A DNA stretch of 64,000 bases from positions 925 through 64,924 of the forward strand of contig JAZQGC010000038.1 of assembly GCA_045539815.1 (NCBI GenBank), given 5' to 3'. How positions within the stretch are numbered: the first letter of the stretch is position 1; each line of letters begins with the position of its first letter. Below, piece by piece: positions 25,186 to 29,064 of this stretch. A program made the translations under genes and the position numbers. Source of the DNA: Candidatus Enterousia sp. GTDB lineage: Bacteria > Pseudomonadota > Alphaproteobacteria > Rs-D84. The notes under the pieces are model-generated. The model did no database searches and was not told the DNA's origin. It was given only the letters and a program-made list of their open reading frames with translations.

Positions 25186-28100
25186 CTATAAATAGGAACT
25201 AAACCCGGCTAAAAGATCTAGCAGTTCTTCCATTTTATAGTAAATGCTATGTAGAAAAACTGTAGTATCATCATCTGGTAATAAAGGTCTAGAATTAAGT
25301 TCTGCTAACATTTGTGTTATTTCAGTAGCTTTCTTTTCAACATCTAATTTCTTATTAATATCTAAATCCAATTTATTAAACTTATCAGGATGAAAGTTTT
25401 TAATAATTGACCGGAGAAATTTCTTTTGTTTGTCTGCGGACATGTATTTTATGTTATCCATATTTTCAAGAAATTCTTCCGAAGCTTTATAAACAGCAAA
25501 AACTTCTTCTGGATTTGCCGAGGCCTTTATTATGTCTTCTACTGTCATTATGTCTTTTACTGTCATATCTGCGGCGTCATCAGCTTTTGCAGAAGTTTTT
25601 GCCACATCGGCAGTGTCATCAGCCATACTGTTTGCTCTTTTCCCAATATCTGCCATCGTATCAGTGACCTTAGCTGGCAACGCAGGTACAGCGTGCACTG
25701 CATTGTCTGTCGCGTTAGTGGTACCACGCGCAACATCCGTCACAACATTTGTGGCTTTGCCGGCATCAGCAGTCGCATCGGCAGCTTTTCCTGCATTTGT
25801 GGCAGCGTCAGTCGCAGTGTTTGCAGCATTTTCCATATTTTTTATTATGGCTTTATATGTTTCATCAATATGGTTTAACGCTTCGTCCCCGGATATACGT
25901 TTAGTTTTATTTAAAGTATCAAAGTAACGATATTGCCCATTTTTATCTACTACCTCTTTTACACCAACCAACGCAAAATTTTCAGTATCAGACATTTTTC
26001 TTGATCTTGCTATTATCTCAGGCAGTTTTTCTATACGCTTCATCGCATTGTCTGCGGATATTGGTTTTGTTCCATTAAATTCATCAAAATAACGAACTGC
26101 CCCTCTTTTATCTAAAACCTCTCTGATACCAACAGCTTTCAACTTTTGGTCCCAAGTCATCTTTGATACACTCTTAATGATATCATCAGATATAGTGACA
26201 CCATCAGTCGCGGCGTTTGTCGCACCAGATGCTGCGCCTGTTGCGGTATGCACAACATTTGTGGCCTTGCCGGCATCCGCAGTTGCATCGGCAGCTTTGG
26301 CTGGCAACGCAGGCAACGCGCGCACCGCATTATCAGTCGTATTAGCAGCGCCACGCGCAGTATCCGTCACAACGTTTGCTGTCTTGACTGCATCAGCACC
26401 ACCTGTTGTCTTTTCAACAATTTTTGTAAATTTCAATACATCGCCACCGCAATCAGAACATTCAAAACCGTATTCTTTTGCTTTTTTCATCAAATCTTTT
26501 AGCGTTGCGTTTTGAATATCCCCCCTCTTAATTTGCACTAAATCATCGGCATTTTTAAACACGTCATCAGGAGTATTTCTGCTGAAATAAGCAGCATCAT
26601 AAATAATATTTTGGACCTTTCCCGTTGTTTTTGTGGCATCCGCAGTTGCATCGGCAGCTTTTCCTGCATTTATGGCAACATTGGCAGCTGTATCTGCTGT
26701 CTTTGCCGCATCAGTGGTTGTATCAGCCGCCTTGGCAGCATCATAAACAACAAGCGCTTTTGTTGCATCTGCCACATCATCAGCCGCGGCGGCAATGTTA
26801 TCGGCAGAACTTAACAACGCCCTTAGTGCTGTTGGTGTTTTTCTTAACAGATTAACCGCAGATGTTCCCAATGATGCAAATTGTCCCAGAACACCGATAC
26901 GCCCCATCCATACAAGTGCCGTACCAGTCCAATCGCTTGTTGCACCACCTGCGGCTGCAACCATTGTATTCCATTCACTGTCACTGACTTCTGATTGTAA
27001 ATCTTCTGGTTTAAGCAGAGATATTAAACGTGCCAATTCTTCGTCGACATTTTTGATAGAATGTTCATCCAGCGCATCTTTTACACTGATAACCTTTGCC
27101 CCCAATTGGCGTATAGTATCTTTCGCGCAATCGCGTGCTTTACACACTGTTGATGCGCGTAAAAATTCTTGGACACGATCCTGGATAAGAACTTTTGATG
27201 AAATATCAGCTGCCAAACTTGCTGATTCTACTGCAAACATTACGCAACCAACACGTGTACCAACCATACAGTCAATAACAGCAATCGCAGATGTACCAAC
27301 CTGAATCACACCATCATAGAATGAAGCCTCTGATTGGTCGCTCAAAATACAAACCTGATTTTTTGCATCCCATTCTGTACCGCTGGACCCCGGATTTATA
27401 CGCTTTATATTTTGGTCTGCCTTGGCGCACTGCGATGCAGATAAACCGTAACATTCTTTGCCTTCATATTTACCACCAGTTCCAAGACACGCAAATGCTG
27501 CTTCCCCTGCCTCATACTTATAGCTCCACGCTTCGCTAACATCGTCAAAAACAAAATCGATTGGTTGTTTATTTAAATAACAACGAATAATATCATCGTC
27601 GTCTTCGTACCACGCCCCCTCTAATGCGGCAGGATTTGGAATACACTCTAAACTTTTGATTAAAAAACCCTTGGATTCGATATAATCATAAATATTGTTT
27701 TTACCTGTCTGTGCACCTTGAATTTGCAGTACTTCGCCCATAAAATATCTATTATCCAAGCCGTCTATTTTTGCCAGATATTTATCTGCATCTGCCTTGG
27801 ATACAACACGCTGTGATAATACACATGTGTTACCCTTTGGTGTGGCGGTCAAACCAAAATGAGCCGCAGCATTTTGGATTTCTTGACTGCATGATGAAAA
27901 ACATGCAAAGCCACCTGAGATATTTCGTACAGAACTATTTTTCGATACATTAGATGAATAACCATATATTTTGCAAATACCATTGACCAAGCCCGCCTGA
28001 ATATCAGCATCAATACTTTCTGTGACATCATCAAATCTGAACGCATAATATTTATCAGCATCAACACTGGCACACATGATAAAATCATCCCAACCCGCAA

Positions 28101-29064
28101 AATCAACCTTGGATTCTGTTGCGTCAGCACATTCTATATCATCGTTACGATGTTTCTTTGCCCACAGTTTTGCCAATTCTGTTGCCTGCATACGTGTAAC
28201 GTTTGTCATATCGAACACATTGTCCACACACTCGCCCTTGTTGCGCGATGTGCTGTCACACGGATTAAAATATCTTCTGTTTTGGCGTCTTTCTTCGTCA
28301 CGTTTACGTTTATCGGCGATTTCTTGGATACTTGGATTGCAAACACATGTATTATTGTCTTTGTCCCAAATTACAGCATCCCAATAACAACTTTTGCCAT
28401 TGTATTGATTTGTGCAGAAATTTTTACATTTTTCAGATGTGTTATTATTTTGTGTTCCCACGGTTTGTATACGTGCGCAATAGCTGGTAGCACTGGCATT
28501 TATATCATCAGGGGCTTGAGAATTGGTAACACAGTCACCACGTTTACGAAAACGAAAACCATTATTACACTGCATTGCTAAACAAGTACAACTGTATCCC
28601 TTTCTGAACACAACTTCGCCGTACGCAATGTTTGTACTGGAACACATATCACCGACACGTGTAGAATCCGTGATTGAACGCAAACCATTTACCTTGTCTC
28701 CACCCGCAGGACAATTACCACTGAGCCCAACATCAACAGCAATTTCCGCATCAGTCAACATTTTTTCAATAAAACTTTTACATTTATCAAAGCCTTCGAT
28801 TCTGTATGTATTTATACCACCTGTACGACAAACCTTGAACAGGCTATCTATGGATATCTTTGCGGTCGTTGCATCCATCAGTTCCTGATATAAATTAGCC
28901 GCCTGTTGTTGCTTGTCTTCTGAAAAAAATTCAACAATCGCGCCTTTTGCGATATCAACAGGGAAAAACAAGTTATTTTCTGTACTAAGAAATGATGATG
29001 CAGGGGCAGCCATTGCCGCGCCAACAGAAAATAATATTGTAAAAAATATTAAAAATCTTTTCAT
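25186..29064 (-). CDS. giant exported protein: Cys-rich N-terminal half, Ala/Thr/Asp repeat region, C-terminal J-domain-like module
   Basis: ATG 29064 (MKRFLIFFTILFSVGAAMA, AP...) gives a classical signal peptide and overlaps the upstream stop as ATGA. The C-terminus has KKFLRSIIKNFHPDKFN (HPD codons at 25384-25392). The ORF track starts at 29082. Confidence 0.85.
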   Translation of the reverse strand: MKRFLIFFTILFSVGAAMAAPASSFLSTENNLFFPVDIAKGAIVEFFSEDKQQQAANLYQELMDATTAKISIDSLFKVCRTGGINTYRIEGFDKCKSFIEKMLTDAEIAVDVGLSGNCPAGGDKVNGLRSITDSTRVGDMCSSTNIAYGEVVFRKGYSCTCLAMQCNNGFRFRKRGDCVTNSQAPDDINASATSYCARIQTVGTQNNNTSEKCKNFCTNQYNGKSCYWDAVIWDKDNNTCVCNPSIQEIADKRKRDEERRQNRRYFNPCDSTSRNKGECVDNVFDMTNVTRMQATELAKLWAKKHRNDDIECADATESKVDFAGWDDFIMCASVDADKYYAFRFDDVTESIDADIQAGLVNGICKIYGYSSNVSKNSSVRNISGGFACFSSCSQEIQNAAAHFGLTATPKGNTCVLSQRVVSKADADKYLAKIDGLDNRYFMGEVLQIQGAQTGKNNIYDYIESKGFLIKSLECIPNPAALEGAWYEDDDDIIRCYLNKQPIDFVFDDVSEAWSYKYEAGEAAFACLGTGGKYEGKECYGLSASQCAKADQNIKRINPGSSGTEWDAKNQVCILSDQSEASFYDGVIQVGTSAIAVIDCMVGTRVGCVMFAVESASLAADISSKVLIQDRVQEFLRASTVCKARDCAKDTIRQLGAKVISVKDALDEHSIKNVDEELARLISLLKPEDLQSEVSDSEWNTMVAAAGGATSDWTGTALVWMGRIGVLGQFASLGTSAVNLLRKTPTALRALLSSADNIAAAADDVADATKALVVYDAAKAADTTTDAAKTADTAANVAINAGKAADATADATKTTGKVQNIIYDAAYFSRNTPDDVFKNADDLVQIKRGDIQNATLKDLMKKAKEYGFECSDCGGDVLKFTKIVEKTTGGADAVKTANVVTDTARGAANTTDNAVRALPALPAKAADATADAGKATNVVHTATGAASGATNAATDGVTISDDIIKSVSKMTWDQKLKAVGIREVLDKRGAVRYFDEFNGTKPISADNAMKRIEKLPEIIARSRKMSDTENFALVGVKEVVDKNGQYRYFDTLNKTKRISGDEALNHIDETYKAIIKNMENAANTATDAATNAGKAADATADAGKATNVVTDVARGTTNATDNAVHAVPALPAKVTDTMADIGKRANSMADDTADVAKTSAKADDAADMTVKDIMTVEDIIKASANPEEVFAVYKASEEFLENMDNIKYMSADKQKKFLRSIIKNFHPDKFNKLDLDINKKLDVEKKATEITQMLAELNSRPLLPDDDTTVFLHSIYYKMEELLDLLAGFSSYL
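25670..26800 (-). repeat. in-frame mosaic repeats inside the giant gene
   Basis: About 50-nt modules such as CACAACATTTGTGGC(T/C)TTGCCGGCATC(A/C)GCAGT(C/T)GCATCGGCAGCTTT recur near 25741, 26248 and 26630, and GCTGGCAACGCAGG recurs at 25673 and 26300. They encode ALPALPAKAADATADAGKATNVV-type repeats, plus two REV(L/V)DK-x-G-x-(Y/R)YFD modules. Confidence 0.8.

Follow-up and report, generated by a model that had tools for sequence, protein, structure and literature searches.

Can a bacterial protein that carries a signal peptide at one end put a J-domain at its other end to use, and if so, on whose Hsp70? The question is raised by a gene in a 64,000-nucleotide (nt) stretch of DNA from a Candidatus Enterousia sp. 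genome (NCBI GenBank assembly GCA_045539815.1, contig JAZQGC010000038.1, positions 925 to 64,924), which we call the window and number from its first nucleotide. A preliminary description, made from the window's sequence, reported a protein of about 1290 amino acids (aa) at 25186-29064 that has a signal peptide, a Cys-rich N-terminal half, Gly/Ala-rich hydrophobic segments, and an Ala/Thr/Asp repeat region, and that ends in a J-domain-like module possibly aimed at the Hsp70 of a host. We compared the gene and its surroundings with related proteins and loci, all of them metagenome-derived sequences. The comparison places the protein in a family of exported proteins that share a constant head and differ in their tails, indicates that a divergent J-domain is one of the recurrent tail modules, and leads us to favor, tentatively, a reading in which the tail acts in the cytosol of another cell.

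Organization of the large protein and its family

The gene for the large protein lies on the minus strand and is divided as follows.

25186..29064, minus strand: whole gene, stop codon included; a 1292-aa modular protein, predicted to be exported
29008..29064, minus strand: signal peptide, aa 1-19, MKRFLIFFTILFSVGAAMA, predicted cleavage after AMA (sequence features, conservation in homologs, hydrophobicity scan)
26830..29007, minus strand: constant part, aa 20-745, common to the whole family (family alignment)
27199..27312, minus strand: hydrophobic segment 1, aa 585-622 (hydrophobicity scan)
26851..26940, minus strand: hydrophobic segment 2, aa 709-738 (hydrophobicity scan)
26620..26829, minus strand: Ala/Thr/Asp-rich linker 1, aa 746-815, containing the repeat copy 26624-26707
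26410..26619, minus strand: Y module, aa 816-885 (YDAAYF...CSDCGG), present in 10 of 59 family proteins
26164..26409, minus strand: Ala/Thr/Asp-rich linker 2, aa 886-967, containing the repeat copy 26261-26344
25840..26163, minus strand: two V modules, aa 968-1021 and 1023-1075 (GV[KR]E...Y.D...G...S..EVL.RID..P), recurrent in the family
25555..25839, minus strand: Ala/Thr/Asp-rich linker 3, aa 1076-1170, containing the repeat copy 25751-25834
25189..25509, minus strand: J-domain-like module, aa 1186-1292 (profile homology, AlphaFold2 (AF2) model)

The open frame spans 25186..29082 (1298 aa), and translation from the codon at 29064, where the protein begins MKRF, gives 1292 aa, in agreement with the reported length. 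MKRF is the likelier start, because its ATG (29064-29062) overlaps the TGA stop (29063-29061) of the upstream open reading frame (ORF), which we call up315, as ATGA, and because a GGGGA Shine-Dalgarno-like run is located 8-12 nt 5' of it; the preceding peptide, MYGDIEM, is therefore probably untranslated ribosome-binding sequence. The reported signal peptide (MKRFLIFFTILFSVGAAMA, followed by AP) has a basic n-region, a 14-residue h-region, and an A-x-A motif (A-M-A), and this layout is kept in homologs; no lipobox is present in the region. It is the sole segment of the large protein that scored as transmembrane (TM)-competent (+0.9) in the hydrophobicity scan, for which we used a position-independent Hessa-type stop-transfer scale with summed scores, a lower score meaning more TM-competent. 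These features support Sec-type export with a cleavable-type signal peptide.

Behind the signal peptide the order of domains is constant part, linker, Y module, linker, two V modules, linker, HPD module. The constant part contains approximately 24 invariant Cys and duplicated Y-x-F-x-F-D-D / I-D-F-V-F-D-D motifs, and the Cys-rich character noted earlier is borne out by 32 Cys in aa 79-646 of the window protein, including CYWDAVIWDKDNNTCVCNPS at aa 226-245. The two mid-protein Gly/Ala hydrophobic segments were likewise found where described. Segment 1 is hairpin-like, with a polar turn between two short hydrophobic halves rich in Gly/Ala and acidic sequence on either flank, and segment 2 is weakly hydrophobic (mean Kyte-Doolittle 0.37), with a charged residue in its middle and with flanks that are, across the family, acidic before (mean net charge -5.7) and basic after (+3.2). 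Their stop-transfer scores are +4.8 and +6.5, versus +0.9 for the signal peptide. No match to the constant part was obtained in Pfam, NCBIfam, PDB profiles, or Foldseek. The AF2 model of the constant part, built on a shallow alignment of 15 sequences, reached a predicted local distance difference test score (pLDDT) of 58 and a predicted TM-score (pTM) of 0.41, and its best Foldseek match (E 0.16, with query-relative TM-scores of at most 0.10) is meaningless.

We found 58 relatives of the large protein, none of them annotated, which together with the window protein form the set of 59 used for module counts. They share a common region, query residues 1 to ~770, at 25-90% identity and then diverge: the last 260 aa of the family proteins fall into at least nine unrelated C-terminal classes (C1-C9), two of which carry HExxH motifs. 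Iterative searches within the family resolved the tails into a limited set of modules that vary in order and number and are separated by Ala/Thr/Asp-rich linkers (the repeat region of the preliminary description, here three linkers), in which 73-80% of residues are A/T/D/G/N/K; the shuffled elements of the module map are J-like, Y, and V modules and terminal domains. The Y module carries the only two Cys of the window protein's tail. No tail module matched Pfam, NCBIfam, or PDB sequences, searches of the PDB with profiles of the V module, the full family, and two tail classes gave low-complexity or chance matches only, and Pfam did not match seven representatives of the other tail classes. Database-stored matches of family proteins to PF03536 (VRP3) and PF08789 were rejected; they fall on the low-complexity linker. 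The overall architecture had not been recognized in the preliminary description, and it is indeed without a match in Pfam, NCBIfam, or the PDB, but it is not a one-off, being a family trait shared with the 58 relatives.

A second subfamily (L023, L029-L031, L046, L049-L051, and others), of ~570-1100 aa and more divergent, matches only query residues ~260-690; the partner gene described below lies upstream at many of its loci, and no J-like module was detected in it. Some genomes contain one cassette of each subfamily (MAG63, with L007 and L023; SIG50, with L004 and L045). At another locus (L013, 10267-11130, plus strand), a stand-alone 287-aa ORF with the commonest tail domain of the family ('GRKVPFYVSSGKAGK...GWFNK') begins at the stop codon of the large gene; it represents an orphan cassette like those of polymorphic toxin loci or else an assembly frameshift.

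The closest related locus, L002, is colinear with the window at 86-89% nt identity and differs from it in the following part of the gene.

25169..25759, minus strand: 3' cassette, consisting of the end of linker 3 and the J-like module (comparison with L002)

In L002, ~840 nt of unrelated sequence, coding for another tail, stand in place of this cassette (25759-25169, ~590 nt). Similarity returns at window position 25168, directly past the stop codon, and the locus is otherwise colinear across the region except for two small genes, for a glycosyltransferase family 6 (GT6) and a peroxiredoxin-like protein. The 5' junction (window position 25759) is inside a copy of a linker DNA repeat that is present three times in the gene (25751-25834, 26261-26344, and 26624-26707); Tandem Repeats Finder detected no long tandem array in the linkers, and these repeats are dispersed direct repeats. 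Because the junction falls within the thrice-repeated linker, the repeated linkers look like the recombination substrate for module exchange. As judged from this alignment, the J-like module recurs and can be exchanged, and this gene gained or retained it through cassette exchange at the repeated linker.

The C-terminal HPD module

Two features within the module bear on its identity.

25384..25392, minus strand: HPD tripeptide, H1225-P1226-D1227, inside FHPDKF (aa 1224-1229) (alignment)
25330..25365, minus strand: 18-nt tandem duplication (repeat analysis)

The HPD is unlikely to have arisen by chance, since 0.014 occurrences are expected in the whole protein (which has 8 His in total) and H-P-D is invariant over 11 aligned modules. 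The other modules are only 17-24% identical to the window's copy, and invariance amid such low identity argues for selection on the Hsp70-activating motif. Through the duplication at 25330..25365, the loop from HPD to helix III is six residues (LDLDIN/KKLDVE) longer than in the other three terminal modules. A second 18-nt tandem duplication in the minus-strand gene (25529-25566), likewise inside the 3' cassette, doubles 'DMTVKDI/MTVEDI' just before the module.

The same terminal module, with an invariant FHPDKF, occurs in three relatives (P0002, P0004, and P0005). The window's module alone gave chance matches only in a phmmer search of the PDB. With a profile of the four terminal modules, J-domain proteins took six of the top seven places in the PDB, at E-values of 0.16-0.9, and a search of 1.84e9 representative proteins yielded one real match, an HscB-type J protein (E 9.5e-4). 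The other match in that search, P0059, proved to be a repeat artefact. Because there was a single real match among so many representatives, the window-type module is, by this measure, very rare. Compared by hhalign with ten J-domains, the four-sequence profile reached 93.7%, and its flanks added ~4 standard deviations (SD) over motif-fixed shuffles; all hhalign scores against J-domains use a control alignment, A2, of 10 J-domains plus P0060, and the searches of the PDB and of large databases with the profiles described next are independent of that alignment.

In many relatives an internal module with the motif KYHPDK sits directly behind the constant part. Over the whole family, a J-like module is present in 28 of the 59 proteins: in 23 it opens the tail, in 4 it is terminal, and in 1 it is degenerate. 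When the internal-module profile was used to search the PDB, the first 19 places were all J-domains (best E 9.8e-4). Window-type and internal modules aligned by hhalign at 94.7% over 52 columns, covering helices III and IV, with a score of 45.6 versus 26.1 +/- 2.7 for motif-fixed shuffles (0 of 150 reached it; ~7 SD), and even the window sequence alone matched the internal module in the correct register (P 1.1e-3). From these alignments, the homology of the window-type module to the internal one extends past the motif. When 11 sequences were merged into one profile, J-domains took all of the top 18 positions in the PDB (best E 4.1e-4), aligned through helix II, HPD, helix III, and helix IV, and the profile reached 96.2% against J-domains in hhalign. 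Among 5.8e9 proteins it matched only three, all small Pfam DnaJ proteins (best E 2.6e-6), which share 'KYHPDKF...KKAKDIFTKI...LSDD' with the internal modules. In the AF2 model of the terminal module (4 sequences, again a shallow alignment; pLDDT 80), helices are predicted at aa 1185-1205, 1210-1223, 1236-1258, and 1265-1290, of which 1210-1223 is basic and helix II-like and 1236-1258 is helix III-like, and the HPD lies in the loop between these two.

Several results weigh against this assignment, and with it against any reading in which the module acts on Hsp70. The last ~100 aa had been taken for a J-domain, yet the Pfam DnaJ profile (PF00226) did not match the whole protein or its last 138 aa at E <= 1, and among nine single internal modules it matched four, the best with E 0.012 and 13.9 bits versus a gathering threshold of 27.8. 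FHPDKF alone supplies 30.6 of the 41.7 score units of the window-type module against J-domains in hhalign, and masking of the HPD left that comparison at P 0.18. The profiles, which include the heavily weighted HPDK motif, are linked to J-domains by modest E-values of 1e-3 to 1e-6. Structure prediction upheld the position of the HPD between two long helices, but when the modeled module was used for a Foldseek search of the PDB, the 50 matches listed were generic four-helix bundles (FAT/GIT-like and designed bundles, E > 0.4) and included no J-domain; the model also exceeds canonical J-domains in the length of helices I, III, and IV, and its HPD-helix III loop is lengthened.

On balance, what stands of the earlier claim is that the family and merged profiles find J-domains and nothing else. 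The family module is, with high probability, a divergent J-domain, and we consider it likely that the window's copy is a further diverged member of the same module. Profile-level homology to J-domains is weaker for the window-type module alone and partly motif-driven, and for that copy the assignment rests on its homology to the internal module.

Partner gene, compartments, and alternative readings

The large gene is accompanied by a second gene, immediately upstream.

29061..30008, minus strand: partner gene up315, an exported protein of ~300 aa (315-aa ORF; synteny and homologs; the listed TTG 5' end is uncertain)

up315 lies immediately upstream of the large gene, abutting or overlapping its start, in 33 of 53 loci, including loci with an otherwise different neighborhood, and has more than 1700 unannotated relatives. 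Its orthologs begin with clear signal peptides, and the mature protein has four invariant Cys and four strongly conserved Gly/Ala/Thr-rich hydrophobic segments, with stop-transfer scores of +3.7 to +6.3. No match to up315 was found in the PDB (where the profile search gave low-complexity or chance matches), Pfam, PHROGs, or PADLOC. As far as these searches reach, no relative of known structure or function is detectable for the constant part, up315, or most of the tail modules. The stop-transfer scores are marginal, and it is unlikely that the internal segments of the large protein and up315 arrest in the producer's inner membrane; by analogy rather than homology, such marginal segments resemble the conditionally inserting segments of pore-forming and translocating proteins.

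On the 3' side, the large gene is followed in the window first by a gene for tRNA-Ser and next by a methyltransferase-like gene. Across 50 loci we found no consistently linked immunity gene; the downstream genes there are mostly housekeeping (S16, FabI, TatD, MGMT-like) and show no correspondence with the tail class. Following Zhang et al. 2012 (PMC3482391), the lack of a linked immunity gene points away from kin-directed toxins and from sibling cells as targets. The sole immunity-like candidates are two homologous ORFs of 244 and 259 aa, 66% identical, directly downstream of large genes in L007 (6839-7573, plus strand) and L008 (13147-13926, plus strand), and absent from L004 (apparently of the same tail class) and L005; that L007 and L008 share a tail class is deduced from length and similarity to P0011/P0012.

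The distribution of Cys bears on where head and tail fold. Per 100 aa, there are 4.41 Cys in the constant part, 0.11 in the tails (54 family proteins), and 1.13 in the other window ORFs, such that, relative to the window background, the tails are depleted approximately tenfold and the constant part is enriched approximately fourfold; 32 tails of 300-1100 aa contain no Cys at all. This pairing of a disulfide-type head with a Cys-avoiding tail suggests that the constant head folds in an oxidizing compartment and that the tail passes it without disulfides and works in a reducing one.

The reading that we favor, short of even confidence, is of a polymorphic exported effector-like protein whose head and partner contact or insert into the membrane of another cell, and whose tail enters the cytosol, where the HPD engages Hsp70. 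The large gene would be the big, variable component of a conserved two-gene cassette in Candidatus Enterousia and the order Rs-D84; the constant part and the co-translated, exported up315 would bind to and insert into another cell's membrane; the Cys-free tail would be passed into the reducing cytosol of that cell; and there the HPD module would engage the Hsp70 of the partner organism, be it a eukaryotic Hsp70 or a bacterial DnaK, so that the chaperone is redirected or else assists in refolding the tail or drawing it in. The export signal, the family, its modularity, the cassette swap, the gene linkage, the J-domain homology, and the Cys dichotomy are the observed parts from which this reading is assembled; release from the producer, entry into the target cell, and stimulation of Hsp70 are the parts that we infer. 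A host (eukaryotic) Hsp70, as the preliminary description had it, is one version of this reading. A protist, the animal epithelium, or a different prokaryote could equally be the target, and the HPD module may also have the DnaK of the bacterium itself as its client. We give little credence to a more specific proposal, in which the constant part and up315 form a self-contained, Sec-dependent device of reduced-genome gut symbionts that delivers Cys-free modular tails into another cell, and the built-in J-domains recruit the recipient's Hsp70 as an import or refolding motor for the tail. Such an effector, bringing its own J-domain to power or complete its entry, could be likened to the J-proteins of organellar translocons (Pam18/Tim14, Sec63).

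To the results on the module that count against the effector reading, three more must be added. No known secretion, translocation, receptor-binding, or toxin domain was found in the large protein or up315 in Pfam, NCBIfam, PDB, Foldseek, PADLOC, or PHROGs. The window protein carries none of the terminal classes C1-C9 that could be enzymes. Approximately half of the family has no J-like module, which is why we conclude that the module is not essential to the job of the constant part.

The absence of any recognized toxin, translocation, or immunity component is also what would be expected of a surface or envelope protein that stays on Enterousia as an adhesin or coat, with the variable tail exposed and the HPD module serving as a J-derived helical spacer without Hsp70 action. 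The signal peptide and disulfide-type N-terminal part would fit such a protein, as would low-complexity linkers and module shuffling like those of variable surface proteins, and the window encodes a second giant, repeat-bearing exported protein (43362-48632). In addition, we know of no ATP or Hsp70 outside cells. The H-P-D, however, is invariant in modules otherwise only distantly similar to the window's copy, several tails contain HExxH-type modules, and a tenfold depletion of Cys in tails beside a Cys-rich head would be unexpected for a permanently extracellular folded region, and we therefore consider a resident surface protein unlikely. Somewhat less likely still is a role for the module in cis, as an export helper that recruits the producer's DnaK to the long pre-protein, keeps it Sec-competent, and is exported afterward without a further role. 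DnaK/DnaJ can keep proteins export-competent in E. coli, the family proteins, at 1000-2000 aa, are very long and depend on Sec, homology to J-domains is supported, and no extra translocation step would be required. Roughly half of the family, however, lacks the module, some of the longest members among them, and the module is exchanged like other tail modules and, being C-terminal, leaves the ribosome last.

A J-domain could also meet DnaK without any delivery if segment 2 spanned the inner membrane N-out/C-in, leaving the Cys-rich part in the periplasm and the tail and J-domain facing the producer's own cytoplasm. E. coli DjlA is a membrane-anchored J protein, and the flanks of segment 2, acidic before and basic after, obey the positive-inside rule, which also speaks against the effector reading. 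Nevertheless, segment 2 is weakly hydrophobic, interrupted by a charge, and far less TM-competent than the signal peptide by its score; cytoplasmic tails would be expected to have the Cys content of the other window ORFs rather than a tenth of it; and rapid exchange of tail cassettes is typical of proteins that face other organisms. An anchored protein of this kind seems improbable to us. Least probable, and disfavored, is that the HPD is an accident in a helical region and that the module is unrelated to J-domains. The missing Pfam match, the loss of the four-sequence profile's significant hhalign match when the HPD is masked, and the absence of J-domains from the 50 Foldseek matches listed would all follow from this explanation. 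It is opposed by the low number of HPDs expected per protein, by the invariance of FHPDKF in four terminal modules, by flanks that exceed motif-fixed shuffles both against J-domains and, more strongly, against the internal module, and by the exclusive retrieval of J-domains by the family profile in alignments that run through helices III and IV.

Genomic neighborhood and known systems

The window has a G+C content of ~40% and encodes an alphaproteobacterial permuted transfer-messenger RNA. The best related loci come from the guts of humans, horses, ruminants, chickens, and other animals, in metagenome-assembled genomes assigned to Candidatus Enterousia or to unnamed Alphaproteobacteria. Members of Candidatus Enterousia (GTDB order Rs-D84) have genomes of ~0.75-1.0 Mb, lack respiration and most biosynthesis, and are inferred to depend on other cells (PMC12306168). 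The genes near the large gene are housekeeping: a fused AccD-AccA, HU, an AmiC-type amidase, a release factor, Obg, Lon, RpoD, and tRNA synthetases. In the 581-aa ORF at 21733-23478 (minus strand), the beta and alpha subunits of acetyl-CoA carboxylase carboxyltransferase appear, by sequence, to be fused, and this ORF is 83-97% identical in aa sequence across related loci. A rubrerythrin gene (PF02915; 36159-36845, minus strand) fits the anaerobic, non-respiring lifestyle reported for the lineage.

Two small genes differ between the window and L002. A peroxiredoxin-like ORF adjoining the cassette (23870-24583, plus strand) is missing in L002 and L012 and occupies the same position in L003, L005, L036, and L038; it is the second small presence/absence polymorphism. 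The other is the GT6 gene (PF03414, E 6e-23; 31381-32262, plus strand), missing from the otherwise colinear L002, where window positions 32264..31342 collapse to 7679..7706; from this comparison the GT6 gene was gained or lost recently. The best-known GT6 enzymes are those of animals (histo-blood-group transferases) and of a few host-associated bacteria. Beside it, a 445-aa ORF (32289-33626, minus strand) with an internal signal-peptide-like segment (MKNFLSVFGFLWAFLLTGAADA) and several Cys has no Pfam or NCBIfam match, is syntenic in L002, L003, L005, L012, and L027, and may be another exported protein.

The giant ORF at 43362-48632 (plus strand, 1756 aa) begins like a signal peptide and contains five or more Listeria-Bacteroides (Flg_new, PF09479) repeats (E 4e-70). 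Toward the C-terminus it has a long Cys-rich region with epidermal growth factor-like C-x-C...G-[FY] spacing, loosely like the Cys-rich part of the large protein. The two are unrelated (no homology by BLAST), and no paralog of the large protein was found in the window.

Candidatus Enterousia and its order Rs-D84 are widespread uncultured gut bacteria with genomes below 1 Mb that probably live off other cells (PMC12306168). A polymorphic exported protein of 1000-2000 aa with a conserved partner is a large investment for such a genome, and for this reason we see in it a leading candidate for the machinery of this interaction. Active J-like modules would make this the first family, found here, of Sec-exported, recombining J-domain proteins, and the module would offer an experimental handle for identifying the partner organism.

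Compared with the Pfam J-domain (PF00226), the module shares an invariant HPD after a basic amphipathic helix, the hydrophobic spacing F-1, I-5, L-8 with K/R at -7, -10, and -11, and the A..I...L pattern of the following helix. The closest variants are HscB/Jac1- and DjlA-like, which have HPDKF and a long loop leading from HPD into helix III. The module differs in scoring below the Pfam threshold, in lacking the 'YY.iLGV' signature of helix I and a Gly/Phe region, in the much greater predicted length of helices I, III, and IV, and in being an exchangeable part of a Sec-exported protein. In terms of sequence scores, membership in the J-domain family is found at the profile level and not at the Pfam gathering score. 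E. coli DjlA shares with the large protein a C-terminal J-domain and N-terminal membrane targeting. DjlA, however, has an uncleaved N-terminal anchor and a cytoplasmic body, whereas the Enterousia protein has a cleavable-type signal peptide followed by ~560 aa of Cys-rich sequence, and its internal hydrophobic segments are too weak to be convincing anchors.

In its evolution, the family most resembles systems built on a constant N-terminus. Polymorphic toxin systems (PMC3482391) likewise combine a shared N-terminus with C-terminal domains that differ between close relatives and are recombined, and at one locus (L013) the family has a stand-alone downstream C-terminal cassette as they do. They differ from the Enterousia family, which has several modules per tail and no linked immunity gene, known trafficking domain, or recognized toxin fold, and because all three of the latter are missing we do not file the large protein among them, although the evolutionary logic is alike. 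J-domains are not among the domains catalogued in the polymorphic toxin survey, with 0 mentions (PMC3482391). The APD1/APD2 proteins of Amoebophilus asiaticus carry a lineage-specific constant N-terminal domain after a signal peptide, and diverse C-terminal domains (PMC3482391). They share with the Enterousia protein a signal peptide, a lineage-specific constant domain, and diverse C-termini in a host-dependent bacterium; the APD domains follow a lipobox, which the Enterousia protein lacks, and the likeness seen is one of layout. MARTX toxins, by analogy only, share arrays of exchangeable modules in a very large exported polypeptide and strain-to-strain replacement; MARTX repeats, the cysteine protease domain, and a type I secretion signal are absent from the Enterousia protein (none by Pfam).

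The closest functional precedent is HopI1 of Pseudomonas syringae, in which an N-terminal region and disordered repeats precede a C-terminal J-domain; the protein binds the Hsp70 of plants and stimulates the ATPase activity of that chaperone (PMC4617103). Injected through type III secretion, HopI1 lacks a signal peptide and a Cys-rich module, and its similarity to the Enterousia protein is seen in the J-domain only. Among the window ORFs that we examined we saw no gene of a type III system, and a Sec signal peptide argues for another route. Were the J-like modules of the Enterousia family active, bacterial J-domain effectors would extend beyond the type III effector HopI1.

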